Positions 37,331 to 60,697 of a DNA stretch of 64,000 bases are shown in pieces (within the stretch, counting starts at the first letter, position 1; each line of letters opens with the position of its first letter). This stretch comes from Planctomycetota bacterium. GTDB taxonomy: Bacteria; Planctomycetota; UBA1135; UBA2386. Where the stretch lies: NCBI GenBank assembly GCA_965228735.1, contig OZ245838.1, positions 3,395,997 to 3,459,996 of the forward strand, in the 5' to 3' direction. A program made the translations under genes and the position numbers. The notes under the pieces are model-generated. The model did not search any database. It saw only the letters and a list, made by a program, of their open reading frames with translations, and had not been told where the DNA came from.

Positions 37331-39106
37331 GTGATCCAATCCGCCCTCGTCCCTCTCGCCGCGCTGCTGGCAGCGCTGTTCGCTGCGCTCGCGCTGCCGG
37401 GCCAGAACCCGATCCAGGTGCCGCTGAACTACAACTTCAACGGCATCGCGCACGCCGGCGAAACCGGCCAACCCGACAATCCGAACGGCTTCCGGTCGAT
37501 CTCGGATCGCGCGCTCGACTTCACGGGCGGCATCCCGAACGACCCCGTGCTTGCGCGCTACGCGCTCGTCACGATGCCGGGGACCCTCGACATGGTGCAC
37601 CTCGGTAACCGCAACACGGTCGACAACGGCAACTGGGCGTTCGATTCTTCGCCCAACAGCAACAGCATCGGCACGCGGCCGAGCTGGCTGCCGAGCGTCA
37701 ATCAGAGCGGGCCGCAGGCGACGGTGCTGTCGACGCCGATCCCGCTCGGACTGCAGTCGCAGGCGACGGTGCTGTTCCACGTGAGCAACGGCGGCGGCTC
37801 GTGCGATGTCTTGTTCACGTTCCAGAGCGCCCTGACGGTGACGCGGACGATCACGGCACCGGACTGGTTCAACGGCGGCTACGCCGGCCGCGACAGCGTC
37901 GATCGCGCCAACCCCGGCGGCAACCTCAACCTCGTCGAGGCGACGGTCGATCTCAGCGCGCACGCGGGCGAGACGCTGATCCGCATCGCGTTCTTCAACC
38001 GCTCCAACACCAACGCCGGCTACGGCATCTACGGCGTCAACGTCGTGCCCGCGCCCGAGCCGGCGACGGTCAACGAGATCCCGCTGAACTGCAACTGGAA
38101 CGGCATCGTGCACGCCGGCGAGTCGGGCCAGCCCGATGCCCCGAACGGCTACCGGTCGATCGCGGACAAGGGCCTCGACTTCTCGGGCGGCGTGCCGAAC
38201 AACGCGCAGCTCGCCGGCTTCGACCTCGTCGAGTCGCCGGGTGTGCTCGATCTCGTGCTGCTGGGCAACCGCAACACGGTGGGGAACGCCCAGTATCCGT
38301 TCGATCCGCTGCCCGACGGCGACGACCTCGGCACGCAACCCGCGTGGCTGAGCAATCCCGATCTCACGGGGCCGCAGACGACGACGCTGCCGACGCCGGT
38401 CCTGCTCGACAGCAGTTCGACGGCGAGTTTCCTCTATCAGATGTCACACGGGGGCGGCGCGTTCGACGTGCGGTTCACCTTCACGACGGCGTCGGTGACG
38501 TCGACCCTGACCGCGAGCGACTGGGCCGCTGGTAGCTATCTCGCGGCCGGGAACGTGGACCGCGGCCAGACGGCGACGACGCTGCGGATCGAGGACGCGA
38601 CGATCGACCTCGGGCCGCTCGCCGGCCTCGTGCTGACCGCGATCACGTTCGAGAACTCGTCCAACAGCAACGGCAGCTGCGCCATCCTCGCGGCGACCGT
38701 GACCGGTTGCCTCGCGTGCAGCAACGTCGGCGGCCCGACCGCGTTCGGCGGCGGCAACGGCCCGACGATGACGACGTCGTCGACGGGCGCGCTCGGCTGC
38801 CCGCTCGACTGGACGGTGCAGGGCGCAACGCCCGGCACCACGTTCGGCCGCTTCGCGCTGTCGTTCGCCACGACGGGCCTGCCGCTCGCGGGCTTCGTCC
38901 CGGGCTGCACCGGCACGATCTTCGTCGACAACCCGGTGACGGCCGTCGCCGTCGTCAATCCGGCCGGCAACGCGACGTTCGCGTTGCCGATCCAGACCGA
39001 TCCCGCGTTCTGCGGCCTGCGCATCATCGCGCAGTACGCCGAGCTCGTCCCGACCTCCTGCCCCATCCTGCTCAGCGATGCACTCTCGATCACGATCGGT
39101 AACTGA
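37331..39106 (+). CDS. Secreted protein with two tandem ~200-aa repeats of an unknown domain plus a conserved Cys-containing C-terminal domain
   Basis: No in-frame ATG; GTG ~37331 gives a signal-peptide-like VIQSALVPLAALLAALFAALALPGQ. Repeats begin IPLNYNFNGI(A/V)HAGE(T/S)GQPD.PNG(F/Y)RSI(S/A)D. The C-terminal ~110 aa is homologous to the shared C-terminal domain. Confidence 0.55.
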   Translation: MIQSALVPLAALLAALFAALALPGQNPIQVPLNYNFNGIAHAGETGQPDNPNGFRSISDRALDFTGGIPNDPVLARYALVTMPGTLDMVHLGNRNTVDNGNWAFDSSPNSNSIGTRPSWLPSVNQSGPQATVLSTPIPLGLQSQATVLFHVSNGGGSCDVLFTFQSALTVTRTITAPDWFNGGYAGRDSVDRANPGGNLNLVEATVDLSAHAGETLIRIAFFNRSNTNAGYGIYGVNVVPAPEPATVNEIPLNCNWNGIVHAGESGQPDAPNGYRSIADKGLDFSGGVPNNAQLAGFDLVESPGVLDLVLLGNRNTVGNAQYPFDPLPDGDDLGTQPAWLSNPDLTGPQTTTLPTPVLLDSSSTASFLYQMSHGGGAFDVRFTFTTASVTSTLTASDWAAGSYLAAGNVDRGQTATTLRIEDATIDLGPLAGLVLTAITFENSSNSNGSCAILAATVTGCLACSNVGGPTAFGGGNGPTMTTSSTGALGCPLDWTVQGATPGTTFGRFALSFATTGLPLAGFVPGCTGTIFVDNPVTAVAVVNPAGNATFALPIQTDPAFCGLRIIAQYAELVPTSCPILLSDALSITIGN

Positions 39107-41663
39107 TCTCGCGTTCGCCACCGCGGCGCTCGCGATCACGCTCGCGGCGCGCGTCACGGCGCAGAACCAGCCGCCGCTGACGCCCGGCTTCACGGAGCCG
39201 CCGACGAGCAACCTCACGCTCAACCCGAGCGACGTCCACATGGAGACGACGCCGTTCTCCGATCCGGACCCGGGCGATCAGCACGCGGCGTCGGACTTCG
39301 AGATCTGGACGGTGTCGCCGTCGCAGCGCGTCTGGGCGGGGCTCGGACTCACGGGTTTCGAGAAGGTGCACGCCCATCTCGGCGACGGCGTGTTCGAGAA
39401 CTCGCACAGCGGCTGGCACCGACTGTTCGCCAACACGCAGTTCCTGCTGCGCGTGCGGCACAAGGACGACAGCGGCGATCCGGCCACCGAGTGGAGCGGC
39501 TGGGCGTCGGTCCCGTTCGCGACCGGCGACGCCGGAATCAAGCTCCCGATGCTGCTCGAGGACGTCGACAGCACTCCCGCGCCGACGTGGACGGAGGCGA
39601 ACAACCCCACGGTTGCGATCGACCTGCCCGCCGGCCTGCCGAGCCCGATGTTGCGGATCGAGACCGACACCCGCTGGCAGCTGCTCCGCATCGACGGCAC
39701 GGCGAACACCATCAACCGGGTCTTCAACCCGCCGGGCCTGCCCGTGCATCGCGCGATCCGCGTCGTCATCGAGGCGGGCAACCCCGGCGGCAACCTACAG
39801 CTTCCCGCCAGCGATCTGCGCGCCTTCGAGCACAGCTGCGAGGGCTTCGTCATCCACCTGCCGGCGGTCGACCTGGCGCCGTTCTCGCGCGCCGAGTTCT
39901 GGGTCAGCGACCACGGCGGCACGTACGATGCGGCCGGCTCACCGTTCGTGCCGACGTTCAACAATCTCGCGCGCCCGGTGCCCGTACCGTGGGAGCCGCT
40001 GCAGGCCGGGTTCGCGCTCGACGTCGTCGCGTCGGGCCTGCGCATGCCGGTGAACATCGCGTTCGTGCCGGGCGCAGGCACGCAACCGCTCGATCCCAAG
40101 TTCTACGTCACCGAGCTCTACGGCACGATCAAGGTCGTGACCAACGACGGCACGGTCGCGACCTACGCGTCCAACCTGCTCAACTACACGCCATCGGGCG
40201 CGTTCCCGGGCAGCGGCGAACAGGGCCTCGCGGGGATCGCGGTCGACCCCGTCACGGGCGACGTCTTCGTCTCCCATCTGTGGCGCACCGGCGGGCAGAA
40301 CAACCCGCGCATCACGCGGCTCACGAGCCAGAACGGCGGCCTCACGTCGTCGTCGCGGCAGGTGATCCTCGACATGCTCGGGGAACCGCAGGGCCAGTCG
40401 CATCAGGTCTCGTGCCTCGAGATCGTGAACGGCGAGCTCTACTGCCACATGGGTGACGGCTTCGCCTACCAAACGGCGCAGAACCTCGGCTCCTACCGCG
40501 GCAAGATCCTGCGGCTCAACCTCGACGGCACGCCGGTCACGAGCAACCCGTTCTACAACGGCGGCACGATCAACTCGCGCGACTACGTCTACTGCTACGG
40601 GGTGCGCAACCCGTTCGGCGGCGCGTGGCGCGCCGCGGACGGCGTGCGCTACTGCGTCGAGAACGGCCCCAACGTCGACCGCCTGTCGCAGCTCGTGCCG
40701 GGCCGCAACTTCGGCTGGAACAACTCGAACTCGAGCATGTTCAACTTCGCGCTGCACGCGTGGGACCCGTCATCCGGGCCCGTCAGCATCGCGTTCGTGC
40801 AGCCGCAGACATTCGGTGGCAGCGGCTTCCCGGCCGAGCTGCACGACCGCGCGTTCGTCACCGAGTCCGGCGCGACCTACGCGCAGGGCGAACAGTCGAT
40901 CGGCAAGCGGATCACGTCGTTCACGTTCGACGCCAGCGGCAACGTCACGAGCGGACCGATCCCGTTCGTCGAGTACACCGGCGACGGCTTCGCGACCGCG
41001 GTCGCGCTCGCGGCCGGCCCCGACGGGCTCTACTTCAGCGAGTTCTACCGCGACGAGATGACGTCGGGGCCGACCGCGACCGGCGCGCGCATCCTGCGCG
41101 TGAGCTACGGCGACCCGCTCGACTGCGACGACAACGGCCTGCCCGACGCGTGCGAGCTGGCGAACGGCGCGGCCGACTGCAACGGCAACGGCGTGCTCGA
41201 CGTGTGTGACCTCAGCTCGGGCACGTCCCACGACTTCGACGGCAACGGCGTGCCCGACGAGTGCGATCCGCTGTTCGCGAGTGTCGACACGATCTCGCTG
41301 AGCGCCGGCGGCACGGTCATGTTCGACCTCGACGCGGGTGCGAGCAACGCCGGGCAGCTCTACCGGCTGCTCGGCTCGATGACGGGCACGACCCCCGGCA
41401 CGCAGTTCGGCAACGTCACGCTGCCGCTCAACAGCGTGAACGACCCTTGGTATCAGCTCACGTCAACGGTGTTCAACCCGGCGATCCTGCAGGGCACGGT
41501 CGGGCAACTCGACGGCGCCGGCCGCGCGCAGGCCGCGATCGCCGTGCCGCCGCTGCCGCTCAGCCTGCTCGGGCTGACGTTCCACCACGCCTACCTCGTG
41601 AGCGACCCGAGCATGCTGGCGCTGTTCGCCAGCAACGCGGTCCCGCTCACGATGACGCCCTGA
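39078..41663 (+). CDS. Secreted PQQ-dependent sugar-dehydrogenase-like beta-propeller protein with dockerin-like Cys/Asp repeats and the shared C-terminal domain
   Basis: Signal peptide. Soluble glucose/sorbosone dehydrogenase-like motifs (LAGIAVDP, YVYCYGVRNPFGGAW, NFGWNN). CDDNGLPDACELANGAADCNGNGVLDVCD...DGNGVPDECD repeats. C-terminal LYRLLGSMTGTTPGT...LPLNS...LLGLTFHHAYLV. Confidence 0.65.
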   Translation: MHSRSRSVTDLAFATAALAITLAARVTAQNQPPLTPGFTEPPTSNLTLNPSDVHMETTPFSDPDPGDQHAASDFEIWTVSPSQRVWAGLGLTGFEKVHAHLGDGVFENSHSGWHRLFANTQFLLRVRHKDDSGDPATEWSGWASVPFATGDAGIKLPMLLEDVDSTPAPTWTEANNPTVAIDLPAGLPSPMLRIETDTRWQLLRIDGTANTINRVFNPPGLPVHRAIRVVIEAGNPGGNLQLPASDLRAFEHSCEGFVIHLPAVDLAPFSRAEFWVSDHGGTYDAAGSPFVPTFNNLARPVPVPWEPLQAGFALDVVASGLRMPVNIAFVPGAGTQPLDPKFYVTELYGTIKVVTNDGTVATYASNLLNYTPSGAFPGSGEQGLAGIAVDPVTGDVFVSHLWRTGGQNNPRITRLTSQNGGLTSSSRQVILDMLGEPQGQSHQVSCLEIVNGELYCHMGDGFAYQTAQNLGSYRGKILRLNLDGTPVTSNPFYNGGTINSRDYVYCYGVRNPFGGAWRAADGVRYCVENGPNVDRLSQLVPGRNFGWNNSNSSMFNFALHAWDPSSGPVSIAFVQPQTFGGSGFPAELHDRAFVTESGATYAQGEQSIGKRITSFTFDASGNVTSGPIPFVEYTGDGFATAVALAAGPDGLYFSEFYRDEMTSGPTATGARILRVSYGDPLDCDDNGLPDACELANGAADCNGNGVLDVCDLSSGTSHDFDGNGVPDECDPLFASVDTISLSAGGTVMFDLDAGASNAGQLYRLLGSMTGTTPGTQFGNVTLPLNSVNDPWYQLTSTVFNPAILQGTVGQLDGAGRAQAAIAVPPLPLSLLGLTFHHAYLVSDPSMLALFASNAVPLTMTP

Positions 41664-41715: not shown

Positions 41716-43479
41716 ATGACCGTCCGCTTCTTCGTTCTCACTGTTGCCCTCTCCGCGCCGCTCGCCGCCCAGGCGATCCCCGTGCCGCTGAACTACAACT
41801 TCAACGGCATCGTCCATACCGGTGAAGCCGGGTTCCCCGACGCGCCGAACGGCTTCCGGTCGATCTCCGATCGCGCGCTCGACTTCACGCTCGGCGTGCC
41901 GTCCGACCCGCTGCTCTCGAGCTATCAGCTCGTGACGACCCCGACCACGCTCGACATCGTGCATCTCGGCAACCGCAACACGGTGGACAACAGCAGCAAG
42001 CCCTTCGACCCCACGCCCAACGCCAACAACCTCGGCATCCAGCCGAACTGGCTGGCCAACCCGGACCAGACCGGCCCGCAGACCTCGGTGCTTGCGATGC
42101 CGATGCCCGTCACGTCGACGACGAGCGCCGCATTCCTCTACCAGGTCAGCAACGGCGGCGGTTCGTTCGACGTGAGGTTCACGTTCCAGAACAGCCCTGA
42201 CTTCACCGCGACGCTGTCGGCCGGCGACTGGTTCGGCGGCACCCTGCCCGGCACGGGCTCGGTCGACGAGGGTTTCCCCGACAACAACCTGTCGCTGACC
42301 GAGGGGCGCATCGATCTGTCCGCGTTCGCCGGCGACAACGTCACGGCGATCACGTTCGAGAACGCGAGCAACGGCAACGCGGGCTACGCGATCGTCGCGT
42401 GCAACTTCGAGTACCCGCCCGTGCCGTCCGGCGTGATCCGGATCCCGCTGAACTACAACTTCAACGGCATCGTGCACGCGGGTGAACCAGGCCTCCCCGA
42501 TGACCTGAACGGCTACCGCTCGATCTCCGATCGCGGCCTCGACTTCACGGCCGGCGTGCCGACGGACCCGATCCTCGCGCCCTACTCGGTCATCGACACC
42601 GCTGGCACGCTCGACATCGTCCACCTCGGCAACCGCGACACCGTGAACAACAACGGCCAGCCGTTCGACCTCATCCCCGACAACGACGACATCGGCGTCA
42701 TCCCCGCGTGGCTCCCGAGCGCCGACCAGACCGGCCCGCAGGTCACCCAGCTGTCGTCGCCGATCCTGCTCGACGGCAGCTCGCGCGCCACCGTGCTGTT
42801 CCAGATCAGCAACGGCGGCGGCTCGTTCGACGTCGAGTTCGGCTTCCAGGCCGGCCCCCCGGTGATCGCCTCGGTCACGGGCGGCGACTGGTTCGGCGGC
42901 ACCCTGCCCGGCACGGCCAACTTCGACAGCGGCCTGCCCGGCGCGAATCTGTCGCTGACCGAAGGCACGATCAACCTCTTCACCGAGGCTGGCCGCACGC
43001 TCACGAGCATCGCGTTCCAGAACCGGTCGAACACCAACGCCGGCTACGCGATCGTCGCGATGAACGTCATCGGCTGTGGCATCTGCACGAACTCCGCGAC
43101 GGCCGCGGTCACCAACCTCGGCGGCGGCACCGGCCCGACGCTGAGCTCGCAGTCGACGGCGCGCCTCGGTTGCGACCTCGACTGGTCGGTTGCGGGCGCG
43201 GTTCCGAGCAGCTTCGGCTTCTTCGTCCTCGGCCTCGGCTCCGCACCGACGCCGCTCAGCTCGTTCGTGCCGACCTGCACGACTGGCACGGTGCACATCG
43301 TCAACCCGTCGAACCTGTTCGTCGCGACGAGCGCCGCGGGTGGTGCCGGCGTGAACTTCGAAACGCCGAACGCCCAGTTCGTCTGCGGCGTGACGTTCGC
43401 GGCGCAGTACGCGGAGCTCGTCTCCGGCAGCTGCTTCGTGTCGATCAGCAACGCGGTGTCGATCACGGTCGGCAACTGA
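41716..43479 (+). CDS. Paralogue of the 37331-39106 protein (two IPLNYNFNGIVH repeats plus the Cys-containing C-terminal domain)
   Basis: Signal peptide (MTVRFFVLTVALSAPLAAQA). Two ~210-aa repeats. C-terminus (CTTGTVHIVNP...FVCGVTFAAQYAELVSGSCFVSISNAVSITVGN) is near-identical in pattern to the 37331-39106 protein. Confidence 0.65.
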   Translation: MTVRFFVLTVALSAPLAAQAIPVPLNYNFNGIVHTGEAGFPDAPNGFRSISDRALDFTLGVPSDPLLSSYQLVTTPTTLDIVHLGNRNTVDNSSKPFDPTPNANNLGIQPNWLANPDQTGPQTSVLAMPMPVTSTTSAAFLYQVSNGGGSFDVRFTFQNSPDFTATLSAGDWFGGTLPGTGSVDEGFPDNNLSLTEGRIDLSAFAGDNVTAITFENASNGNAGYAIVACNFEYPPVPSGVIRIPLNYNFNGIVHAGEPGLPDDLNGYRSISDRGLDFTAGVPTDPILAPYSVIDTAGTLDIVHLGNRDTVNNNGQPFDLIPDNDDIGVIPAWLPSADQTGPQVTQLSSPILLDGSSRATVLFQISNGGGSFDVEFGFQAGPPVIASVTGGDWFGGTLPGTANFDSGLPGANLSLTEGTINLFTEAGRTLTSIAFQNRSNTNAGYAIVAMNVIGCGICTNSATAAVTNLGGGTGPTLSSQSTARLGCDLDWSVAGAVPSSFGFFVLGLGSAPTPLSSFVPTCTTGTVHIVNPSNLFVATSAAGGAGVNFETPNAQFVCGVTFAAQYAELVSGSCFVSISNAVSITVGN

Positions 43480-43790: not shown

Positions 43791-43846
43791 ATCACTGGCC
43801 CCGAATCACTGGCCCCGAATCACTGGCCCCAAATCACTGGCCAACG
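43791..43846. repeat. Tandem 14-bp repeat (atcactggccccga) x ~3.7 between convergent genes, overlapping the stop codon of the Kelch gene
   Basis: Read directly: atcactggccccga atcactggccccga atcactggccccaa atcactggcc... The last unit contains the TGA (minus strand) of gene 43834-45945. Confidence 0.7.
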
Positions 43847-45945
43847 GTCAGCTCGATCCCCTGCGTCGCCTCGAGTCCGCCCGACCGCAGACCGAACGCC
43901 TGGGCGAACACCCGTAGCCCGACGAGCGTAGAGGCCGCCGGGATGGGCAGTGGCCAGCGGCCGTTGCCGAAGCCGTCGGTCGTCGTGAAGAGCGACACCC
44001 GCGGCTGCACGAGCAGCGTGCAGCCGGCGACCGGCGTCGCGGCCTGCTGGAGCCCAACGCCGAGCAGCGCCGGCGCTGCCGCCAAGTGACCGCTGCTCGA
44101 CAGCGTCAAGTCAGTGGCCGGCCGCGGCCAGTCGTCGGCGCGCAGTTGCAGCGTCGCCGGGCAACCCGTGCCATAGGAATCCGCGCGCGGCGACTGCAGG
44201 GCGAGCTCGTACAGACTCTCGCCGTCGAACAGCCGCACGCGTCCCGGCGCCGCGCTCACGGACGGCCACAGCGGCAGCGCCACGGCCGGGATCACGAGCT
44301 GCCTCCAATCGACGCCGTCCCAGATCCAGGTGTCGAGTTTGGCGCCGATGACGGCCGGTTCCGCCGACAACACGACGAGGCCCGTGACAGGTTCGAACGC
44401 CATGCTGACGAACGCGTCGGGTGCCGGGGCGTTGGCGGGCGTGAGCTGCTGCCAGCTCGTGCCGTTCCACGACCAGGTATCGGCGCGTGCGCCCACGACC
44501 GTGTCGCTCCCGCCCCACAGGAGCACGTTGCCACGCGCGAGGTCCCCGACCATCGCGGCGCCGCTGCGCGCGGTCGGCGCTACCGGCGTCGCGACCTGAT
44601 TCCAGCCCGCAGCGGTCAGCCGCCACGTGTCGCCTAGCGCCGTGCCCGGTCCCGTGCCACCGCCGAACAACAGCGCGCCGCCAGTCGTCGGGTCGAACGC
44701 CACGGCGGGATACTCGCGGCCCGGCGGTCGCTGCGCGGAAGCGACCGGGCTCCAGGTAATGCCATCGAAGCGCCACGTGTCATCGAGGAACTGGGTCGAG
44801 CTCACCCGCCCGCCGAACAGGAAGACGTCGTTGCCGTCGCTCCACATGCCGTGCTGCGAGCGCCGCGGCGGTGATGTCGGCGGCGCGCGCAGCAACCAGC
44901 TCGCGCCGTCCCACTCCCATGTCCGCGCCGCGTTCGCGCCCGCGACCAGGTCGCCGAACAGCACGAGTCGGTCGCGCGCGATCGAGTAGGCCGTACCCGG
45001 CGTGAAATTCTCGATGGGCAGCATCGTCGCGAATCGCTGGTTCCACGCCACGCCGTCCCACTCCCAAAGGTCCTGAGAGTTCGACGTGACGCCGCCGCCG
45101 ATCAACACCGTCCGGTCGCGATGGCTGTCGTAGACGACGCGGCCGCGACCGTGCGGCCCGGCCTGCGGCCACGGGGTCCAGGTGTTGCCGTCGTACTCCC
45201 ACGTATCCGGGGTCGCACCGCCGCCGTAGAGGACACTCACTCCGCGAGCGGTGTCGAACGTCATGTTCGCGCCGCTGCGCGCGCTCGGCGCGACCGGCGG
45301 TGTGCGCTGCGTCCAGGTGACGCCGTCCCACTCCCACGTGTCGCCGAGCGGCGGGTTCAGGATGAACATCGGATCCGTACCGCCGAACAGCACCGTCCGA
45401 CCACGCGCACGATCGAACGCCATCGCCGCGGCGATGCGCCGCGACGGCCCCACGACGTTGCGCAGCGTCCAGGTCGCGCCATCCCACTCCCAGGTCTGCA
45501 CGGCTGGCGTGGTCGATCCCCCGCAGACGAACACCGTGCGATCACGCGCGCTGTCGAACACCGCCTGGCCGTGAAGAAACACCTGCGGCCCCGTCGCGGT
45601 CACGCGCTGCTGCCAGCGGTTGCCGTCGAACTCGTAGACCTCGGTCATGAACAGGTTGGTCCAACGGTCGACGAGCGCGACCACCACGCCGCGCGTGCTG
45701 TCGTACGCCATGGCCTTGGGTCGCTGCGGCAGCAGGCCGACCGGGCGATGCAACCAGCGGCTGCCGTCCCACTCCCGCGTCTCAGCCGCGGCGCCGACGC
45801 CCACGAGCCGGCCGCGGACCTCGTCGAACACCGCGACCGTGGCCGCAACGAACGGATCGCCGACCACTCGCCATTCCTGACCACGGACCGACGAAGTCGC
45901 CAGCGCGAGCAGCGCACACAGCGAGGCGGGGAAAGCGGTCGACAT
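43834..45945 (-). CDS. Secreted Kelch-repeat (galactose-oxidase-like) beta-propeller protein with the shared C-terminal domain
   Basis: More than 10 repeats of the W-E/x-W-DG-xxW Kelch type (TWEWDGATWT, DTWEYDGNTWT, DLWEWDGVAWN, TWEWDGASWL, DTWRFDGITWS, TWSWNGTSWQ, DTWIWDGVDWR). Signal peptide from MSTAFPASLCALLALATSS; the start could instead be 45957 or 45999. The C-terminal ~110 aa matches the shared C-terminal domain. Confidence 0.7.
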   Translation of the reverse strand: MSTAFPASLCALLALATSSVRGQEWRVVGDPFVAATVAVFDEVRGRLVGVGAAAETREWDGSRWLHRPVGLLPQRPKAMAYDSTRGVVVALVDRWTNLFMTEVYEFDGNRWQQRVTATGPQVFLHGQAVFDSARDRTVFVCGGSTTPAVQTWEWDGATWTLRNVVGPSRRIAAAMAFDRARGRTVLFGGTDPMFILNPPLGDTWEWDGVTWTQRTPPVAPSARSGANMTFDTARGVSVLYGGGATPDTWEYDGNTWTPWPQAGPHGRGRVVYDSHRDRTVLIGGGVTSNSQDLWEWDGVAWNQRFATMLPIENFTPGTAYSIARDRLVLFGDLVAGANAARTWEWDGASWLLRAPPTSPPRRSQHGMWSDGNDVFLFGGRVSSTQFLDDTWRFDGITWSPVASAQRPPGREYPAVAFDPTTGGALLFGGGTGPGTALGDTWRLTAAGWNQVATPVAPTARSGAAMVGDLARGNVLLWGGSDTVVGARADTWSWNGTSWQQLTPANAPAPDAFVSMAFEPVTGLVVLSAEPAVIGAKLDTWIWDGVDWRQLVIPAVALPLWPSVSAAPGRVRLFDGESLYELALQSPRADSYGTGCPATLQLRADDWPRPATDLTLSSSGHLAAAPALLGVGLQQAATPVAGCTLLVQPRVSLFTTTDGFGNGRWPLPIPAASTLVGLRVFAQAFGLRSGGLEATQGIELTVGQ

Positions 45946-46023: not shown

Positions 46024-47196
46024 TCACAGCACGGTGCTGATGCCCGGGTTGCTGGCCTGCAGCGTGTTCGCGTTCGCGTCGTGGCCCACGGCCTGCCAGG
46101 CGAACTGCGTGCCGACGAACGCCGGGTTGTTGGGCACCGCCACCGAGGCCGTCAGCGGCTGACCGGCCGGTGGCACACCGAACGCAACGAACGCGAAGAC
46201 GGTCGGGTCGAGCCACAGTTCGTCGACGACGCCCGCGATCGCGAGCGGTGGACCGCGGAAACCGAGCACCACGATCAATGGGTCGCCGGCGGCAGTCCGG
46301 GCCGCGGCGGTGAAGCTGCCACCGGGTGGCGCGTCGGTCGCCACGAGAGCCGGCAAGCTGCGGGCAAGGGGTGCCGGAGCATTGCCGATGACGTGCACCG
46401 CCGGGTCGAGCCGGAACGCACTCAGCGAATGGACCGCTATGGCCACCGGCGGCCCGATGAGAGGACTGTATACCGCGCCACGCAGGATCCGGACGTTCGA
46501 GGTCGAGCCCACGACGTCGACACCCGGCGAGCCACCGACGAGGACGCCATTGCTGAACGAGCCAAGACCACCCGAGATCATGTTGTCGGCGAGCACGATC
46601 GTGCCGCCGAGGATCGTGACTCCGGGGGTCGAGCTCGACGAGTGGAACGAGATCCCGCGGCCTCGCAGCGCACAGCCGTCGATCGTCGCGGCGCAGACCA
46701 CGAGCTCGACGTGACCTTCGACCGAGCAGTCTCGAATCATCAACTGGTCACAGCTGCTGGCACGCAGCGAGCTCTGGAACGCGCACTGCGGCCCCAGACA
46801 GCCTTGCGCCAGGAACTCGAGATCGGCGAGCAGCACGAGGTCCGCGCAGTCGGTCAGCACGAGCTGGGAGAGCACGGTCTGATTGACGTAGAGCGGACTG
46901 GCCAAGGTCAGCCCGCGCAGCTCGACCGGCTGGCCGATCTGCGTCGCGGTGATCGCGATCTGGCCGTCGATCGTCACCCCAGGCTCGCCGCGAATCGCGA
47001 ACCCCTTGCCGGCGACCGAGAAGCCGGCGTAGCTGCCAGCGCGCACGACGAGAGTGGCTCCCGACGGAACCGCGGCCACGGCCGCGGTGAGCGTCGTGAA
47101 GTGCGTGCCAGGGCCGCCGGCCGCGTCGACGACGAACGTCTGGCTCGGCACGGCGGCGGCAAGCAGAACGAGCCCGAGGGCGGCGGTGCGCAGCAT
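46024..47196 (-). CDS. Secreted right-handed beta-helix repeat protein with a shared-C-terminal-domain-like end
   Basis: Signal peptide (MLRTAALGLVLLAAAVPSQT). Periodic G/N/V/I beta-helix coil repeats (pectate-lyase-like). C-terminal ...LWLDPTVFAFVAFGVPPAGQPLTASVAVPNNPAFVGTQFAWQAV resembles the shared domain but is divergent. Confidence 0.6.
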   Translation of the reverse strand: MLRTAALGLVLLAAAVPSQTFVVDAAGGPGTHFTTLTAAVAAVPSGATLVVRAGSYAGFSVAGKGFAIRGEPGVTIDGQIAITATQIGQPVELRGLTLASPLYVNQTVLSQLVLTDCADLVLLADLEFLAQGCLGPQCAFQSSLRASSCDQLMIRDCSVEGHVELVVCAATIDGCALRGRGISFHSSSSTPGVTILGGTIVLADNMISGGLGSFSNGVLVGGSPGVDVVGSTSNVRILRGAVYSPLIGPPVAIAVHSLSAFRLDPAVHVIGNAPAPLARSLPALVATDAPPGGSFTAAARTAAGDPLIVVLGFRGPPLAIAGVVDELWLDPTVFAFVAFGVPPAGQPLTASVAVPNNPAFVGTQFAWQAVGHDANANTLQASNPGISTVL

Positions 47197-51785: not shown

Positions 51786-54740
51786 TCAGCGCACCCGTCG
51801 GAGTTCGACCACCGCGGCGGCGTGGCGCCGAGCCAACGAACCGACGACGACCTCGCCCCGCCAACCGGCGCCCGACTCGGCCTGGACGTCGAGGTCGAAC
51901 GTGCCGACGGGCAAGAACGCCATCACGCTCGGTGGCGCGTCACGCAGCACCGTGAACTCACCGAACACGCGGCCGTCGCGGCGCCGGCGCAGGCCGATGT
52001 GCAGCACCTCGTGGCCGAACGCCTCGTCGGCCTTCAGAGCGAGCGCGCGACGGGTGACGGCTTCGACCTCGAGGTCGAGCTCGGTTGCCTCGCCTTCTTC
52101 GACCTCGAACGGCACGCCGTTGACCCATGCGAAGTCCTCGCCCATCGCGTAGAGCCGGAACGAACCGACGGGCACCCGCAGCTCACCGGTCGCTGATTCG
52201 GCCCGTGCGTAGCGCCGGGGTGCCGGCGCGCTGACGACGGTGACCACGGCGCCCGCGATGGGCCGGCCGTCGCTGCGCCGCAGTCGATACCGGACGAGGC
52301 CGCTCGGACCCGCCCGCAACACCACGTCGGCAGGAACGCCCGCAGCGAGGACGACGTGGTCGTTCCGCACCGCGGGCTGCGTCGGGTCCGTGCTCTCGAC
52401 GAACACGGAGTAGGAGCCCGGCGCGAGCGCCGGAACGGCGAAGTAACCGCTTCGGTCCGTGCTCGCGCACTCCCAGAACACGTCGGTGTGACAGCGCAGG
52501 TAGACCCGCCCGAACGGGATCGGCGTATCGCCGACGCCGAGGCAGCGGCCGCGGAGCCCGGCGGTCGGCCGCCACCGCTCCGGCACGGTCACGGCGACAC
52601 CCGTGCTCGTCGTGCGGATGCTCCCGGGCTCGACGTCGTGCCACACCGGATCGCCCGCGGCCCGCACGCGCAGCCGCACCGGCCCCTCGCGCTCCCGCAG
52701 GTCACACCGGCCGTCCTCGTCGGTGACCGCCTCCTCGACGCTCGGGATCAACGCCGAACGCGTGCTGGTCTGACAACGCACGTTCCACCCCGCGGCCGGC
52801 GCGCCATCCGAGAAGGCAACCTCGGCCACGAACCGCGGCTCGATCGGCAACTCGATCACGAGCGGATCCTGCGCGCCGACGCCGCCGTCGAGCACGACGC
52901 GGCGAGCAGCGTGGCCCGGCGCGCGCGCGCACACGACTCCGTGGCCCGCCGGCAGATCGAACCGGAACGTGCCGTCCGCCGCGACCTGCAACCCGACGAC
53001 CTGATCGCGGTCCGGCCCGCGATAGACGACCTCGGCGCTCGCCAGCGCGGCGCCTGCCGAGTCGATTACCCGGCCCCGCAGCGTGCGGGCTTCGCGCATC
53101 GTGAGGGCCAGTTCGACGGTCTCGTCGGTCGCGATCGTGACCGATCTGGCGACCGCCTGCCGCCCCCGGACGCGGGCGTAGATCTCGTGCTCACCCGGCG
53201 GCAGCCAGAGCGGCCCGAACCGGCCGTGAGCATCCGTTCGCACGGTCACCGTCGGCGCCGCCTGCATCTCGACTCCGTCCGGCAATCCCACGGCCGCGAA
53301 CTCCGGCGCCGCACCAGCGGTCACGGCGACGTCCGCGCACGGGCGACCGGCCGGATCGCACAGCGTCCCCGAGACCGCGCCGGCCGGCGCGAGGCGCAGC
53401 CTGAGTTCGCCACCATCGCGCGCGCACGGCCGCGGCGGCGCCACGGCGTGCGGAGCCATGGCAGCAACGATCGCGACCCGCGGCATCGCGCCCAGGGCGA
53501 ATCGACCCGCAGCGTCCGTGCGAGTCACCACGCCGCCGCCGAACGCATCGTCGACGGCCGCGAGCCAGACAGCGGCCCCCGCGGCGGGCTCACCATCGCG
53601 ACCGATCACGACGCCGCGCCGGGTGGGCCCGTTCGCGACCAGCTGCACGACGCCGGCGTCGCGCGCGGGGTCGAGCGACCGCTCCTGACCACGGTCGCTG
53701 CGCAGCCGCACGCGTCGCCCGATCAACCCGTCGAACCGAACGCTGCCGTCGATCGCCGTGACACCGCGGCGGCGCGCGGCGAGCGGGTCTTCACCGCTGA
53801 CCGGCTCGACCCATACGCCGACCCCGGGAACCGCTTCGCCGTCGCGGTCGCGAACCTGCACGACGAGGCCGTTCCCGGCCGTCTTCGAAGCTGCCGGCAT
53901 CGGTACCGGAAACCGCGAGTCAATCGCGGCATCGGCAGCATGCGGGGTCGCGTCACCCCGCGGGTCGCCCGCCGGGTCACCCCCGGAGTCACGCTGGGCC
54001 ACGGCCGCGCCCCGCGGCGCGGGTTCCGAGGCCCCGGAGAAGGGCACGACGGCCAGCGCGACGACGACGAGCGCCGCGACGGCGCCGAACGAGGTCGCCC
54101 GAGCCGGCCCCCGCCCCCACCAACGTCGCGGGCACGCGCTGGTCCGTTGCCCAGGAACGGCGGTCGCGAGCAACAACGCCAACAACGCCGGCGTCAATCC
54201 TCGCGGCAACCGCCGCCGCAGTTCGCGGAGGCCGCGAAACAGGTGAACCCGCGTCGTCGCCTGCAGCCGGCCGAGACGCCTGCTGACCTCGCGCGGCGTC
54301 AGGCCTTCGAGCACGTGGAGCTCGAGCGCGACCCGATAGTGCTCCGGCACGCTCGCGATCGCACGCCGGAGCAGGGCGTGCAGTTCGCTGCCCGCGGCCG
54401 CGTCGACCGGGCTGTCGGTCGACGCCGAGCGATCGAGTGCCCACGCCTGCTGATGGCGATGCCGCCGGGCCTCGCTGCGAACGTGGTTGGCGATCTTGCG
54501 CGTGAGGATGCCCTGCAGCCACGGCAAGAGCGGCTGCGACGCATCGTACGCCGCCGACCGCTGCACCGCCGTCACCATCGTCTCGTGCACGAGCTCCTCG
54601 ACGAGGTCCGCGGAGAGGGCGAACCGCATGGCGAAGCTGCGGAGCCGCGGCGAACAACGCCGGACGACCGCGGCCAGCGCGTTCTCGTCGCCGTCGTCGA
54701 GGAAGCGGCGGAACAGGATCTCGTGTGTGTCGACGGCCAC
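51786..54740 (-). CDS. Membrane-tethered ECF sigma factor: sigma70 regions 2 and 4 fused to TM helices and a ~700-aa extracytoplasmic beta-sandwich-repeat region
   Basis: Region 2 (DLVEELVHETMVTAVQRSAAYDASQPLLPWLQGILTRKIANHVRSEARR). Region 4 (LTPREVSRRLGRLQATTRVHLFRGLRELRRRL). TM segments (LTPALLALLLATAV; FGAVAALVVVALAVVPF). Then repeated carboxypeptidase-regulatory-like/Ig-like segments (GRVIDSAGAALASAEVV, GTLCDPAGRPCADVAV...). Confidence 0.7.
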   Translation of the reverse strand: MAVDTHEILFRRFLDDGDENALAAVVRRCSPRLRSFAMRFALSADLVEELVHETMVTAVQRSAAYDASQPLLPWLQGILTRKIANHVRSEARRHRHQQAWALDRSASTDSPVDAAAGSELHALLRRAIASVPEHYRVALELHVLEGLTPREVSRRLGRLQATTRVHLFRGLRELRRRLPRGLTPALLALLLATAVPGQRTSACPRRWWGRGPARATSFGAVAALVVVALAVVPFSGASEPAPRGAAVAQRDSGGDPAGDPRGDATPHAADAAIDSRFPVPMPAASKTAGNGLVVQVRDRDGEAVPGVGVWVEPVSGEDPLAARRRGVTAIDGSVRFDGLIGRRVRLRSDRGQERSLDPARDAGVVQLVANGPTRRGVVIGRDGEPAAGAAVWLAAVDDAFGGGVVTRTDAAGRFALGAMPRVAIVAAMAPHAVAPPRPCARDGGELRLRLAPAGAVSGTLCDPAGRPCADVAVTAGAAPEFAAVGLPDGVEMQAAPTVTVRTDAHGRFGPLWLPPGEHEIYARVRGRQAVARSVTIATDETVELALTMREARTLRGRVIDSAGAALASAEVVYRGPDRDQVVGLQVAADGTFRFDLPAGHGVVCARAPGHAARRVVLDGGVGAQDPLVIELPIEPRFVAEVAFSDGAPAAGWNVRCQTSTRSALIPSVEEAVTDEDGRCDLREREGPVRLRVRAAGDPVWHDVEPGSIRTTSTGVAVTVPERWRPTAGLRGRCLGVGDTPIPFGRVYLRCHTDVFWECASTDRSGYFAVPALAPGSYSVFVESTDPTQPAVRNDHVVLAAGVPADVVLRAGPSGLVRYRLRRSDGRPIAGAVVTVVSAPAPRRYARAESATGELRVPVGSFRLYAMGEDFAWVNGVPFEVEEGEATELDLEVEAVTRRALALKADEAFGHEVLHIGLRRRRDGRVFGEFTVLRDAPPSVMAFLPVGTFDLDVQAESGAGWRGEVVVGSLARRHAAAVVELRRVR

Positions 54741-54744
54741 CCGG

Positions 54745-55863
54745 CTACTGGATGATGCGGACCGCGGCGGGCTCGGAGGCCGCGACCGTCGGATAGTACG
54801 TGAACCACGCGAAGTTCACGGTTTGTCCGAGCAAGACCGCCGGCACCGGGACCTGGGTATCGAACGACGCATTCGCCGTACCGTCGGCCGACAACGTGCC
54901 GAGGAATCCCGGCAGCGCCGCGGTGCCGAGGCCGCCCGCAAGCGCGCCGAGGAACCAGTCGGAGTTGAGCGGCAGCGTCACGCCGCCGAGCGGGATGCCG
55001 GGCGTCGTCCCGGAGATCGACCCGAGCAGCGCGTACGCATCGCCGGCGCCCTCGCCGTAGAGCCGCAGCGTGAGCGTCTCGCGGCGGTTGATCCGCAGTT
55101 CTTCGAGATCGACGGAGAGGCTGTTCGGGGCCGTCCGTTCGCGGACCGTGAAGTTGTCGAAGACGAGGCTGTCGTCACCGGCGCCATGGAGCGTGAGCTG
55201 CGTGAAGCCGTGCGCCGGCAGGTTGGTGAGCGTCGCGGTCGGCTGACCCGTCGCGACGAGCTGACCGTCGATGTAGAGCGCGGTCGCGTCGCCGATGATG
55301 TCGACGACGGTGCGCGTGTGATGCCAGGTGTCACGCGTCACGAAGTAGCCGGTCGGACTCCAGACGCGATTGCTCGTCGACATGAAGTGCACCTCACCGT
55401 CGCTCTGGATGTCCCAGAGGAGCTGCGAGGACCACGGGTGCGGCGCCGGCTGGGTGTAGAACCCCCACGCCGTCGAGGGCTGGCTGCTGCTCGTCAGGTA
55501 GAAGTCGAACTCGACCTCGATCACGCCGGTCGAGAGGTTGAAGAGCGCGTTCCGGCGCAGCTCGCCGGTCGCGCCTGGCGCCATCTGCGACGCGTCCCAG
55601 CGAACGGCCTGTTCGCCGCTGCGGACGACCGTCGATTGGATCTGCGCGGCGGCCAGATTGGGGATGCCCTGGACGCTGTCGAACAGCATCCAGCCATCCT
55701 GCCCGCTGGTCATCGAGATGCCGGGCAACGCGCCGGGCACGTAGCGCGGCGCCTCGAACGAGCCGGCCGAGAACGACCCGTACTGACTTTGCGCCGAAGC
55801 GGCATCGAGCGGCAGGAGGAGGAGAACGGAGAGCGGGAGAGATCCCGAGAGCAGGTGTTTCAT
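54745..55863 (-). CDS. Secreted concanavalin-A-like (LamG/jelly-roll) protein with the shared C-terminal domain
   Basis: Signal peptide (MKHLLSGSLPLSVLLLLPLDAASAQ). Lectin/glucanase-like beta-sandwich composition. C-terminal AYALLGSISGTTPGIPLGGVTLPLNSD...LLGQTVNFAWFTY. Stop is 4 nt before the ECF-sigma start. Confidence 0.6.
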   Translation of the reverse strand: MKHLLSGSLPLSVLLLLPLDAASAQSQYGSFSAGSFEAPRYVPGALPGISMTSGQDGWMLFDSVQGIPNLAAAQIQSTVVRSGEQAVRWDASQMAPGATGELRRNALFNLSTGVIEVEFDFYLTSSSQPSTAWGFYTQPAPHPWSSQLLWDIQSDGEVHFMSTSNRVWSPTGYFVTRDTWHHTRTVVDIIGDATALYIDGQLVATGQPTATLTNLPAHGFTQLTLHGAGDDSLVFDNFTVRERTAPNSLSVDLEELRINRRETLTLRLYGEGAGDAYALLGSISGTTPGIPLGGVTLPLNSDWFLGALAGGLGTAALPGFLGTLSADGTANASFDTQVPVPAVLLGQTVNFAWFTYYPTVAASEPAAVRIIQ

Positions 55864-56645: not shown

Positions 56646-56716
56646 GGCCGCGCAGTGTAGTTGGCGGCGGACCGCGAATCCCCCCTTCGGCCGAGCGGCG
56701 TGCTCCTCCAGACCGT

Positions 56717-57319: not shown

Positions 57320-58927
57320 ATGAAGGAGCCAATTCTCGCCGCGATGGTCGTCACGGTTCTCGCGCCGAACGCGTTCGCCCAGGCCCCCGGCCTGCGCATC
57401 TTTCAATCCATCCCCGCCGGCGAGACGCGGATCGTCGACAACCAGGGCACGATCGTGAAGACCTACCCCGGCACCGGCGCGCTGACCGCGCACGTGATGC
57501 CAGACGGCACGCTCGTGCGCGCGATCCAGATCGGCGGGCTCACCGTGACGGGCATGACGGGGCGGATCGAGCGGCTCGCGTTCGACGGCACGCTCCTCTG
57601 GCAATACCAGCTGGCCGGGCCGTTCCGCTACGCGCATCACGACATCGAACCGATGCCGAACGGCAACGTGCTCGTGATCGCGTGGGATCGCCGCACGCGC
57701 GACGACGCGATCGCGGCCGGGCGCGACCCGGCGTCGGCGACGGCGCCGGACTTCCTGCCCGACTCCATCCTCGAGATCCAGCAGACGGGCCCGACGACGG
57801 GGAACATCGTCTGGGAGTGGCACATCTGGGATCACCTGATCCAGGACTTCGACCCGACGAAGGCGAACTACGGCGACGTCGCCGCCCACCCCGAACTCGT
57901 CGACATCAACTACCCCCCGCTCGTGCTAGGTGACGGTGACTGGAACCACGCCAACGGTCTGGACTACGACCCGGTGAACGACTGGATCATCCTGAGCTCG
58001 CGGGCGCAGGACGAGATCTACCTGATCGATCATTCGACGACGACCGCGGAGGCGGCGGATCACACGGGCGGTCGGCGCGGCAAGGGCGGCGACATCCTCT
58101 ACCGCTGGGGCAACCCGGCGGCCTACCGCGCGGGCACGGCAGCGCACCAACAGCTCGACGGGCAACACGACCCGCGGTTCATCCCGCCGGGTTTCCCGGG
58201 CGCTGGCAATCTCACGGTCTTCAACAACGTCTACCAGGCGGGGCAGTCCGCGGTTCACGAGCTCACCCTGCCGCTCGATCCGCAGGGCAACATCGAGCTC
58301 GATCCGACGACCGGGCGATACGGGCCGACCGCGCCGACGTGGACGTTCACCGAGGCCGGCTTCTTCTCGCAGGTGACGTCGAGCGCCGAGCGCCTGCCGA
58401 CCGGCAACACGCTGATCTGCAGCGGCACGCAGCGAGAGTTGCGCGAGGTCACGCCGGCCGGTCAGACGGTGTGGCTGTTCGCGGATCCGTCGAACCCGTT
58501 CCTGCTGTTCCAGACCCACTACGTCGAACGCGCGCTCTGGGCCTCGCGCGCGAAGCTGCCGATCGCTGGCGGTCACGTCGCGTTCGATCTGCTGACCGGG
58601 TCGGCGCACGCCGGCGAGACCTATCTGCTGCTCGGTTCGATCTCGGGAACGGGCCCGGGAACGCTGCTCCCCGGGGGTGTCGTCCTGCCACTCAACCTCG
58701 ACTACTTCACCCTGGCCATGGCGACCACGTTCAACAACGCGCTGTTCGTCGACAACGTCGGCGCGCTCGATGCGGTCGGCGGCGGCAGGGCCGCGATCGT
58801 CGCGCCCCCCGGGCTGATCCCCACCGCACTCGTCGGGATCGACATGGACTTCGCCTACGTCACCTGGGACGCGGCGTTCTCGCCGGTGCGCGCCAGCAAC
58901 CCCGTGCGGGTCACGATCGTGCGGTAG
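57320..58927 (+). CDS. Secreted arylsulfotransferase (ASST)-like beta-propeller protein with the shared C-terminal domain
   Basis: Signal peptide (MKEPILAAMVVTVLAPNAFAQA). ASST-family hallmarks (YAHHDIEPMPNGNVLVIAWD, WEWHIWDH, DWNHANGLDYDP, RLPTGNTLICSG). C-terminal TYLLLGSISGTGPGTLLPGGVVLPLNLD...LVGIDMDFAYVTWD. Confidence 0.7.
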   Translation: MKEPILAAMVVTVLAPNAFAQAPGLRIFQSIPAGETRIVDNQGTIVKTYPGTGALTAHVMPDGTLVRAIQIGGLTVTGMTGRIERLAFDGTLLWQYQLAGPFRYAHHDIEPMPNGNVLVIAWDRRTRDDAIAAGRDPASATAPDFLPDSILEIQQTGPTTGNIVWEWHIWDHLIQDFDPTKANYGDVAAHPELVDINYPPLVLGDGDWNHANGLDYDPVNDWIILSSRAQDEIYLIDHSTTTAEAADHTGGRRGKGGDILYRWGNPAAYRAGTAAHQQLDGQHDPRFIPPGFPGAGNLTVFNNVYQAGQSAVHELTLPLDPQGNIELDPTTGRYGPTAPTWTFTEAGFFSQVTSSAERLPTGNTLICSGTQRELREVTPAGQTVWLFADPSNPFLLFQTHYVERALWASRAKLPIAGGHVAFDLLTGSAHAGETYLLLGSISGTGPGTLLPGGVVLPLNLDYFTLAMATTFNNALFVDNVGALDAVGGGRAAIVAPPGLIPTALVGIDMDFAYVTWDAAFSPVRASNPVRVTIVR

Positions 58928-59029
58928 CCTGCTGCTGGCGATTGCGCCGCAGCAGTAACGCGTTCCGCCGCTCGCATCGCTGCATTCCGGTGGGCTTGCG
59001 CAAACCCGGCGCCCGGCAATGCTGAGCCG

Positions 59030-60697
59030 ATGCCTCCGTGTCTCCCGCCCGCGCCCGCAGCCCAAGGGCAGCCGCTGGGCGCCGCGCTCGCCGCGGCAGC
59101 CTGGCTGATCGTCGGAACCATCGCGACCGGGGCCCGAACGTCGGCCCAGGCGCCGGGACTGCGGGTCTTTCAGGCCATCGGCAGTCTGCCGACGCGCATC
59201 GTCGACAACCTGGGCAACGTCGTGCACAGCTATCCCGGCGGCGCGGTCCTCTCGGCGCACGTCGCCGAGGACGGCACGCTCGTGCGCTCGCAGCAGATCG
59301 GCGGCATCGCGGTGCCGGGCGCGACCGGTCGGCTGCAGCGGCTCGCGTTCGACGGCACGGTGCTCTGGCAGTTCGACGTCTCGGGTCCGTTCGAGTATGC
59401 GCATCACGACATCGAGCCGATGCCGAACGGCAACGTGCTCGTGATCGCGTGGGATCGCTACACGACGGCCGACGCGATCGCCGCGGGTCGCGACCCCGGG
59501 CTCGTGTCCGGCACCGACTGGCTGCCCGATGCGATCCTCGAGATCGCGCCGACCGGGCCGACGGCGGGCGCGATTGTCTGGGAGTGGCACATGACGGATC
59601 ACGTGATCCAGGACTTCGACCCGACGCGCCCCGACTTCGGCGTCGTCGCCAACCACCCCGAACTGCTCGATCTCAACTACCCGCCCGTGCTCGTCACGGA
59701 CGGCGACTGGAATCACTTCAACGGACTCGACTACGACCCCGTCAACGACTGGATCATCGTCAGCTCCCGCGCGCAGAACGAGATCTACCTGATCGACCAC
59801 TCGACGACGACGGCCGAGGCCGCGGGTCACACGGGCGGCGCGCGCGGTCGCGGCGGCGACATCCTGTATCGCTGGGGCAACCCGGAGGCCTACCGCGCCG
59901 GCACGGCGGCCAACCTGACCCTCAACGGGCAGCACGACCCGCGTTTCGTGCCGCCGGGCTTCCCGGGTGCCGGCAACCTCACGATGTTCAACAACGTGTT
60001 CCTGCCGGGTCAGTCCGCCGTGCACGAGTTCGCGATCCCGCTCGACGCGCAGGGCAACCCGACGATCGACCCGGTCACGGGCCGCTACGGCCCGGCGGCA
60101 CCGACCTGGACGTTCACCGAACCCGGGTTCTTCTCCGCCGTGACATCGAGCGCCGAACGCCTGCCGAACGGCAACACGCTGATCTGCAGCGGCACGCAGC
60201 GTGAACTGCGGGAGGTCACGCCGGCCGGCCAGACCGTCTGGCAATTCAGCGATCCCGCCAACCCGTCGCTGCTCTTCCAGTGCAACTACGTCGATCGTTC
60301 CCTGTGGCACGACACGACCGAGCTGTCCGCGGGCGTCGGTGGCACGATCGGGCTCGGTCACCTCACGGGCTCGGCGCACGCCGGCGAGCTCTACCAATTG
60401 CTCGGCTCGATCTCGGGCACCGCCCCCGGCACGACGCTGCCCGGCGGCGTGCACCTGCCGCTCAACATCGACTTCCTCACGCAGAACATGGCGACGAACT
60501 ACAACAACGCGCTGTTCGTCGACACGATCGGCGCGCTCGACGGCATGGGCGCCGGAACCTCCGCGATCGTCGTGCAGCCAGGCCTCGTTCCGACCGCCCT
60601 CGTCGGGGTCGAACTCGACTTCGCCCACCTCGTCTGGGACGCGACGTTGTCACCCGTGCGCGCGAGCAATTCGGTGCGAGTGACGATCACGCCGTGA
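59030..60697 (+). CDS. Tandem paralogue of the ASST-like protein with the shared C-terminal domain
   Basis: ~65-70 % identical by eye to 57320-58927 over the whole length (FEYAHHDIEPMPNGNVLVIAWDRYT..., same C-terminal domain LYQLLGSISGTAPGTTLPGGVHLPLNID...LVGVELDFAHLVWD). Confidence 0.7.
   Translation: MPPCLPPAPAAQGQPLGAALAAAAWLIVGTIATGARTSAQAPGLRVFQAIGSLPTRIVDNLGNVVHSYPGGAVLSAHVAEDGTLVRSQQIGGIAVPGATGRLQRLAFDGTVLWQFDVSGPFEYAHHDIEPMPNGNVLVIAWDRYTTADAIAAGRDPGLVSGTDWLPDAILEIAPTGPTAGAIVWEWHMTDHVIQDFDPTRPDFGVVANHPELLDLNYPPVLVTDGDWNHFNGLDYDPVNDWIIVSSRAQNEIYLIDHSTTTAEAAGHTGGARGRGGDILYRWGNPEAYRAGTAANLTLNGQHDPRFVPPGFPGAGNLTMFNNVFLPGQSAVHEFAIPLDAQGNPTIDPVTGRYGPAAPTWTFTEPGFFSAVTSSAERLPNGNTLICSGTQRELREVTPAGQTVWQFSDPANPSLLFQCNYVDRSLWHDTTELSAGVGGTIGLGHLTGSAHAGELYQLLGSISGTAPGTTLPGGVHLPLNIDFLTQNMATNYNNALFVDTIGALDGMGAGTSAIVVQPGLVPTALVGVELDFAHLVWDATLSPVRASNSVRVTITP

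Follow-up and report, generated by a model that had tools for sequence, protein, structure and literature searches.

Eight genes within a stretch of 64,000 nucleotides from a Planctomycetota bacterium (contig OZ245838.1 of GenBank assembly GCA_965228735.1, positions 3,395,997 to 3,459,996 of the forward strand; the whole stretch is termed the window, and its first letter is position 1) encode putatively exported proteins with dissimilar N-terminal modules, and seven, possibly eight, of these proteins end in related versions of one domain. This immunoglobulin-like (Ig-like) domain of ~130 residues is undescribed in Pfam, NCBIfam and the Protein Data Bank (PDB). Profile comparisons indicate that it represents a real, very large and previously undescribed superfamily of planctomycete domains. 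A terminal module for docking or retention, which would bind a shared partner in the envelope or at the cell surface, is the leading explanation of its role, and is held at a little under even confidence.

A shared terminal domain and its subtypes

The eight genes were designated A to H and are organized as follows.

37331-39106 (+): gene A; signal peptide, two ~210-residue IPLNYNFNG modules that lack a Pfam family, and a C-terminal domain of subtype 2 (A/C-type)
39078-41663 (+): gene B; signal peptide, GSDH/PQQ sugar dehydrogenase propeller, dockerin-like DxNGNGxPDxC repeats, and a C-terminal domain of subtype 1
41716-43479 (+): gene C; paralogue of A with two IPLNYNFNG modules and a subtype-2 domain
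43834-45945 (-): gene D; signal peptide, Kelch propeller, and a D-type (YGxGC...) subtype-2 domain
46024-47196 (-): gene E; signal peptide, probable beta-helix, and a doubtful, divergent C-terminal domain at about 46027-46416
54745-55863 (-): gene F; signal peptide, weak LamG-like module, and a subtype-1 domain
57320-58927 (+): gene G; signal peptide, ASST-type arylsulfotransferase propeller, and a subtype-1 domain
59030-60697 (+): gene H; paralogue of G with an ASST module and a subtype-1 domain

An earlier, sequence-only reading of the window had described these genes and their N-terminal modules, and both were recovered as described in the open reading frames (ORFs) and in scans of Pfam and NCBIfam. 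Pfam matches comprised GSDH in B (1.7e-28), ASST (PF05935) in G (2.1e-24) and also in H, and Kelch families in D, together with a weak Laminin_G_3 match in F and a weak NosD-like beta-helix match in E. Proteins A and C had no Pfam matches. Hydrophobic N-terminal segments resembling signal peptides, which the same reading had claimed for all eight proteins, were seen by eye in each of them. The window has a G+C content of ~70% throughout, and PSCyt/PSD and DUF1552, which are hallmarks of planctomycetes, are encoded at 32.5-37.2 kb. A database protein (P0030) with a sequence identical to that of B is present in an NCBI genome and in metagenome assemblies.

The last 140 residues of each window protein were compared pairwise by BLASTP. 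The termini of B, F, G and H matched each other at 1e-10 to 1e-57 and were designated subtype 1. A hidden Markov model (HMM) constructed from 164 outside domains and zero window sequences, referred to as the external-only HMM, matched these four proteins at 1e-30 to 1e-46 (individual values are listed below). The next-best window ORFs with this model were A, C and E, whose alignments were C-terminal, in register and not significant. No ninth carrier was found when HMMs built solely from window sequences were run against the 501 six-frame ORFs of the window. With a profile of B, F, G and H, 24 proteins were recovered from metagenomes, and all of them possess the same terminal domain except two frameshifted fragments. 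A word-indexed search with a single domain was near-empty and profile searches were needed to reveal the family: a full HMMER scan with subtype 1 across 1.84 billion cluster representatives yielded 8219 representatives at E<=1e-3, 5709 at <=1e-10 and 978 at <=1e-30. The subtype-1 motif is LLGSxSGTxPG...LPLNxD...HHAY...SNAVPLxLxP, within which a contiguous Gly/Pro-rich segment of 30 residues (AG..Y.LLGS.SGT.PG....G..LPLN.D) is near-invariant. The motif of this segment is strongly kept among sequences that are just 30-45% identical.

Among the remaining termini, A and C matched each other closely by BLASTP, D matched A and C marginally (0.002-0.01) and E matched none. Comparison of D with the A/C profile by hhalign extended over 77 columns, and a D-type profile, built from D together with four similar domains that start with YGxGC from other metagenome-assembled genomes (MAGs; one each in loci L004 and L014 and two in L016), matched both A and C. 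These profile matches group A, C and D into one sequence-defined subtype, subtype 2, within which D-type domains start with YGxGC and A/C-type domains have four conserved Cys residues. Genes of the D-like type adjoin subtype-1 carriers in the planctomycete MAG loci L004, L014, L016 and L036. The domains of the seven proteins and the values that support them are listed here.

38714-39103 (+): domain of A; subtype 2, four conserved Cys; A-C BLASTP 1e-28, D-type profile E=4.7e-6
41259-41660 (+): domain of B; subtype 1; external-only HMM 3.7e-46, subtype-2 profile 3e-4
43087-43476 (+): domain of C; subtype 2; A-C BLASTP 1e-28, D-type profile 1e-4
43837-44226 (-): domain of D; D-type; hhalign to A/C profile 89.5% probability, E=2e-6
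54748-55137 (-): domain of F; subtype 1; external-only HMM 1e-30
58520-58924 (+): domain of G; subtype 1, last 125 residues modelled; external-only HMM 4.4e-38
60290-60694 (+): domain of H; subtype 1; external-only HMM 3.5e-37

The two subtypes were connected by several profile comparisons. The match of B to the subtype-2 profile, which comprised 15 sequences and no subtype-1 sequence, spanned ~90 columns in register. When 1631 ORFs that included 29 subtype-1 carriers were searched with this profile, the 14 ranks immediately after its own seeds were all occupied by such carriers. Alignment of the subtype profiles with each other by hhalign gave P values of 2e-4 to 1e-3 over the last ~50 columns, and the real cross-subtype score of 25.7 was higher than all 400 column-shuffled controls (maximum 21.5); the shuffle controls used were those for g2deep, D and E. 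Evidence that subtypes 1 and 2 belong to one superfamily is good but not overwhelming, and by sequence this superfamily would include at least three subtypes: subtype 1, D-type and A/C-type.

The E terminus was outscored by 30 of 300 shuffles when used as a single sequence, and aligned with the combined superfamily alignment by hhalign at P=1e-3 over 47 columns in register. It was not significant by BLAST or HMMER in pairwise comparisons or with the external-only, subtype-2 or combined profiles. Protein E is a plausible divergent member of the superfamily. Thus, the claim in the sequence-only reading that at least eight proteins have a common domain holds for seven, for which BLASTP and profiles reveal similarity beyond composition, and does not extend to E by BLAST or HMMER; the single core motif that had been proposed gives way to two or three divergent subtypes.

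The fold was predicted for the domain of G. An AlphaFold2 model based on a 26-sequence alignment had a predicted local distance difference test score (pLDDT) of 96.7 and a predicted template modelling score (pTM) of 0.88. In this model the domain adopts an all-beta Ig-like sandwich of nine predicted beta-strands with one short helix, and the near-invariant 30-residue segment spans a long loop. Searches of structures by Foldseek with the G model returned nothing at E<=1e-3, which leaves the domain in the generic Ig-like class with no specific or characterised structural match, and the subtype-1 profile had zero matches at E<=10 among all PDB sequences. In the eight window proteins, scans at E<=1 with Pfam-A 2025 and NCBIfam 20.0 gave no match on the C-terminal domain. 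Specifically, no match was found at that threshold with models for type IX secretion system (T9SS) C-terminal domains (CTDs; TIGR04183, TIGR04131 and PF18962), or with PEP-CTERM TIGR02595 and the other CTERM models of NCBIfam. Across 95 full-length carriers, the most widespread Pfam family was present in 19 and the most widespread NCBIfam family in 11, and both are cargo modules. The earlier assertion that the domain matches no known sorting motif is therefore upheld by sequence and fold searches that were all empty at these thresholds.

Similarity that is compositional or due to chance, with no common domain, would be easiest to envisage in a G+C-rich genome such as this one with its Ala/Gly/Pro-rich proteins, and neither E nor D alone against subtype 1 attained significance. 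However, a profile free of window sequences recognizes B, F, G and H and no other window ORF, thousands of family members align in one register, the predicted fold is confident and column-shuffled controls never attain the real cross-subtype score. Chance similarity is very improbable as a general explanation: it was rejected for seven of the eight proteins and could still account for E alone.

Position, cargo and distribution of the domain

Among the best 150 proteins, the domain ends at most 6 residues from the C-terminus in 146, and in 137 of these its end coincides exactly with the final position of the profile; the terminal residue is Pro in 93. All subtype-1 and subtype-2 copies in ~55 further loci also end at most a few residues from the end of the ORF, except in two ORFs, L021 and L051. 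Rare exceptions have the domain at the N-terminus of the mature protein directly after an AxA-Q signal-peptidase site (P0029, P0066 and P0149, the last of which has 6 cluster members on contigs of up to 377 kb), and the domain in these cases is still at one terminus of the mature protein. Tandem copies occur in P0028 and P0029 and one internal copy in P0120.

The cargo is highly varied. The 95 full-length carriers include 33 Pfam families, examples of which are FG-GAP, Kelch, GSDH, S8 protease, beta-helix, C-type lectin, TIG, FGE-sulfatase, CHRD, PQQ and SBBP, and most of these carriers have hydrophobic, signal-peptide-like N-termini. The module upstream usually leads straight into the first domain strand without an intervening low-complexity linker. 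A terminal domain on unrelated exported proteins, as the sequence-only reading had envisaged, is therefore evident well outside the window. Of 19 genome loci with carriers, 16 are named as Planctomycetota or a planctomycete lineage, and one of these is from Rohdeia mirabilis Pla163, which is in culture; the other 3 loci belong to unclassified MAGs. Named carrier proteins derive from Planctomycetota with the exception of one short, probably mis-binned contig.

Two short stand-alone genes, at 9971-10411 of locus L022 (P0016, 137 residues) and at 9752-10324 of locus L024 (P0014), encode proteins in which a signal peptide is joined to no more than the C-terminal two thirds of a subtype-1 domain. 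Such genes might represent carriers that have decayed, or else the domain in a minimal free form. Separately, the Cys-containing DxNGNGxPDxCD repeats of B directly precede its domain (residues about 720-760). They resemble the calcium-binding repeats of dockerins or of thrombospondin type 3, Pfam is silent on them, and such repeats also occur in P0002, P0004, P0047, P0059, P0072, P0081, P0087 and P0117. A strict motif search for DxNGNGxPDxC repeats was positive in 5 of 113 carriers.

Carrier genes cluster. The window has seven or eight of them in a 23-kb section, and in 15 other loci a subtype-1 gene adjoins a subtype-2 gene. The A-B(-C) trio, whose genes overlap or are tightly spaced, is kept at least partly in at least 10 other planctomycete MAG and metagenome loci (L006, L007, L008, L010, L013, L035, L039, L040, L042 and L045), which include a scaffold from the TARA ocean data. 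The contig JANSXC010000009.1 ("MAG: bacterium isolate bin.15"; loci L003/L006) is syntenic with the window: it has the A-B-C trio, a G/H-like ASST carrier ~5 kb further on and then an orthologue of the PKD protein at 60799-63801. This contig is the closest available relative of the window organism, with ~60% identity in the domain.

Every signal peptide with a type I-like cleavage site that was read in the window has Gln at position +1, examples of which are TAQ/N, AAQ/A, RGQ/E, PSQ/T, SAQ/S, FAQ/A, VLAQ/D and RAQ/S. The N-termini examined were those of the carriers at 37331, 39078, 41716, 45945(-), 47196(-), 55863(-), 57320 and 59030, and others at 2-766, 9108(-), 17358, about 32700 and 48315(-). 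At least 65 of 96 external carriers also display Gln at +1. As exported window proteins without the domain share the pattern, it is not carrier-specific. The pattern suggests that N-terminal pyroglutamate may be formed in this planctomycete lineage. A "Q-rule" of this kind has been described as specific to Bacteroidetes, where it coincides phylogenetically with the T9SS (PMC5837995).

Candidate roles and gene neighbourhood

The near-obligate terminal position on diverse exported cargo, maintained across three divergent subtypes, argues for a module that confers a common fate on its cargo, and we infer that this fate is reached through partner binding. By analogy with known systems, the likeliest form of such a module, albeit at slightly less than even probability, is one for terminal docking or retention. 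After export and cleavage of the signal peptide, the domain would serve as a common address: it would bind a shared envelope or surface partner, either protein or glycan, and this binding would retain or display diverse cargo at one location, with a logic like that of dockerins or of the surface-attachment role of the T9SS CTD. The tandem copies in P0028 and P0029 would fit avidity of binding, the conserved Gly/Pro-rich loop segment is compatible in the model with a binding surface, and the clustering of carriers was counted in favour of docking.

Several observations weigh against the docking explanation. A census of neighbouring genes, in which non-carrier ORFs from 56 loci (480 kb) were clustered, disclosed no partner: no receptor-like, peptidase or translocon gene recurs near carriers, and the recurrent neighbours are solely antisense shadow ORFs along with RsgA, histidine kinases and ABC transporters. 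Co-occurring machinery, which the sequence-only reading had proposed as something to look for, was thus not apparent at the level of gene neighbourhood. Moreover, the terminal position could stem partly from gain of the domain by gene fusion, and Gly and Pro may be conserved for structural reasons alone. Profile methods with modest statistics underlie the link between subtypes. In addition, the subtype-2 model, derived from a 6-sequence alignment, had a pLDDT of 54.6 and was not used for fold comparison; a common fold for A, C, D and E is therefore not supported, and the fold argument applies to subtype 1 only.

The sequence-only reading had instead proposed a candidate sorting or secretion tag. 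As an export signal akin to the T9SS CTD, the domain would be recognized in the periplasm by a planctomycete outer-membrane translocon and then cleaved, with release of the cargo or its covalent attachment to the surface. The location of the domain at the very end of the protein, where 137 of 146 cases lack a tail, its predicted Ig-like beta-sandwich of a size similar to T9SS CTDs, and the diverse cargo with Sec signal peptides all accord with such a signal. So do Gln at +1, as a trait that coincides with the T9SS in Bacteroidetes (PMC5837995), the Akkermansia surface sulfatase Amuc_0953, which reportedly ends in a domain that resembles a T9SS CTD (PMC13524802), and a secretin gene and a gene like that of component K of the type II secretion system (T2SS) ~30 kb upstream in the window. 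However, neither TIGR04183 and TIGR04131 nor any other sorting model of Pfam or NCBIfam matches the domain, neither a linker nor a recognizable cleavage region precedes it, no candidate translocon or peptidase is recurrent near carriers, and Gln at +1 is present on window proteins that lack the domain. The genes for T9SS machinery (SprA/Sov, PorK-N, PorV and PorU) were absent from the 64-kb window and from the 480 kb around other carriers, and the T9SS is rare, if present at all, outside Bacteroidetes (PMC5837995). Copies at the mature N-terminus, in tandem and at an internal site would not be expected for a strict C-terminal signal, and the mature N-terminal and tandem copies are a reason that a docking module is ranked above a strictly C-terminal signal of the T9SS type. 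A sorting tag remains a plausible reading of the sequences that is somewhat weakened by these positional exceptions, and we regard export of the T9SS type as a lesser possibility than docking.

Lower still in the ranking is a passive structural module, that is, an Ig-like cap, spacer or oligomerisation domain that has spread by shuffling and has no targeting role, which we consider rather unlikely. Ig-like domains are frequent accessories of bacterial extracellular proteins, and the generic fold with no specific structural neighbour, the failure to find a partner and the occasional non-C-terminal positions are as expected for a domain of this kind. Spacer-type Ig domains such as PKD, Big and TIG typically are internal and repeated, whereas the domain described here is terminal in >97% of cases and usually single. 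The strong retention of the long-loop motif at 30-45% identity and the persistence of all three divergent subtypes at the terminus also speak against a passive role. The order of preference is therefore a docking or retention module, followed by an export signal of the T9SS type and then by a passive cap.

Other genes in the window were also noted. One of these is adjacent to gene F.

51786-54740 (-): extracytoplasmic function (ECF) sigma factor of 984 residues with regions 2 and 4, hydrophobic segments and at least 4 CarboxypepD_reg repeats

The sigma factor gene starts 4 nt past the stop codon of F. This spacing was as reported in the sequence-only reading; a wider association was not apparent, as the adjacency is a single case with no counterpart near other carriers. 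The fusion of an ECF sigma factor to CarboxypepD_reg repeats has a single-chain architecture like that of a sigma/anti-sigma pair. At 25037-30490 (+), three consecutive genes encode an HlyD-like adaptor, another protein like HlyD and a fusion of peptidase M50 (site-2 protease) with HlyD, and may form a system for export or processing. The genes for a secretin (PF00263; 7059-8594, -) and a T2SS-K-like minor pseudopilin (4264-5907, -), with a UDP-GlcNAc 2-epimerase gene between them, could belong to a locus for type II secretion or a type IV pilus ~30 kb from the carriers. Both the HlyD/M50/HlyD cluster (25-30.5 kb) and the secretin (7-8.6 kb) were set aside as candidate machinery since nothing ties them to the carriers.

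Significance and comparison with known systems

The means by which proteins are delivered to, and retained at, the unusual planctomycete cell surface are largely unexplained, and very many exported proteins in these bacteria are of obscure fate. A domain that occurs on thousands of exported enzymes and adhesin-like proteins offers a handle by which a candidate surface or secreted proteome may be drawn from sequence alone. It also could provide bait for a receptor or translocon and a possible tag for display of proteins on planctomycete cells, and it fills a gap in annotation as no curated library that was searched describes it. If the domain were a true export signal, it would define a second CTD-dependent route of secretion among diderm bacteria, one that evolved independently.

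The PEP-CTERM/exosortase, MYXO-CTERM, GlyGly-CTERM and LPXTG systems resemble the planctomycete domain in that a C-terminal element is common to diverse exported proteins of one lineage. These signals are short and tripartite, with a motif, a hydrophobic helix and a basic tail. In contrast, the planctomycete proteins end in the last predicted beta-strand of a globular domain, usually with Pro, and lack a transmembrane segment; their final residue is P, R, Q, N or L, and a hydrophobic helix is absent.

The T9SS CTDs of Bacteroidota (type A, TIGR04183/PF18962; type B, TIGR04131) are folded Ig-like beta-sandwiches of about 80-130 residues at the very C-terminus, the class of fold predicted for subtype 1 and its most frequent position, and are likewise found on Sec-exported carriers that have diverse catalytic or adhesive cargo, are many per genome and display Gln at +1. 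The planctomycete domain differs by the lack of any sequence or profile match, by the nine strands and short helix of its model, by its occasional N-terminal, internal and tandem copies, and in that neither a cleavage region nor machinery was found. To our knowledge, no T9SS is known in Planctomycetota. A possible relation within the Planctomycetes-Verrucomicrobia-Chlamydiae (PVC) superphylum is provided by Amuc_0953 of Akkermansia muciniphila, a surface-located sulfatase with a terminal Ig-like domain like a T9SS CTD, for which a comparable, unknown system for translocation to the surface has been suggested; the final domain was not resolved in the crystal (PMC13524802). The empty PDB search with the subtype-1 profile says little in this instance, as the deposited chain may omit the terminal domain. 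The likeness, as published, consists of an Ig-like terminal domain in a PVC bacterium without a known T9SS. It is conceivable, at well below even confidence, that the three subtypes mark the cargo of an unrecognized, domain-dependent planctomycete pathway by which proteins cross the outer membrane or become attached to the surface, an independently arisen functional analogue of the T9SS that possibly is related to the system suspected in Akkermansia.

Dockerins mediate docking to a common partner and not translocation across a membrane. They are small, helical, calcium-binding duplications like EF-hands (PF00404), whereas the planctomycete domain is all-beta in its model and has no Pfam match; moreover, the dockerin-like repeats of B and some other carriers are separate from the domain, and no cohesin-like partner was identified. 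Nevertheless, dockerins are mostly C-terminal, sometimes N-terminal or internal, and are distributed across many unrelated exported enzymes, and it is this positional pattern that the planctomycete domain matches.

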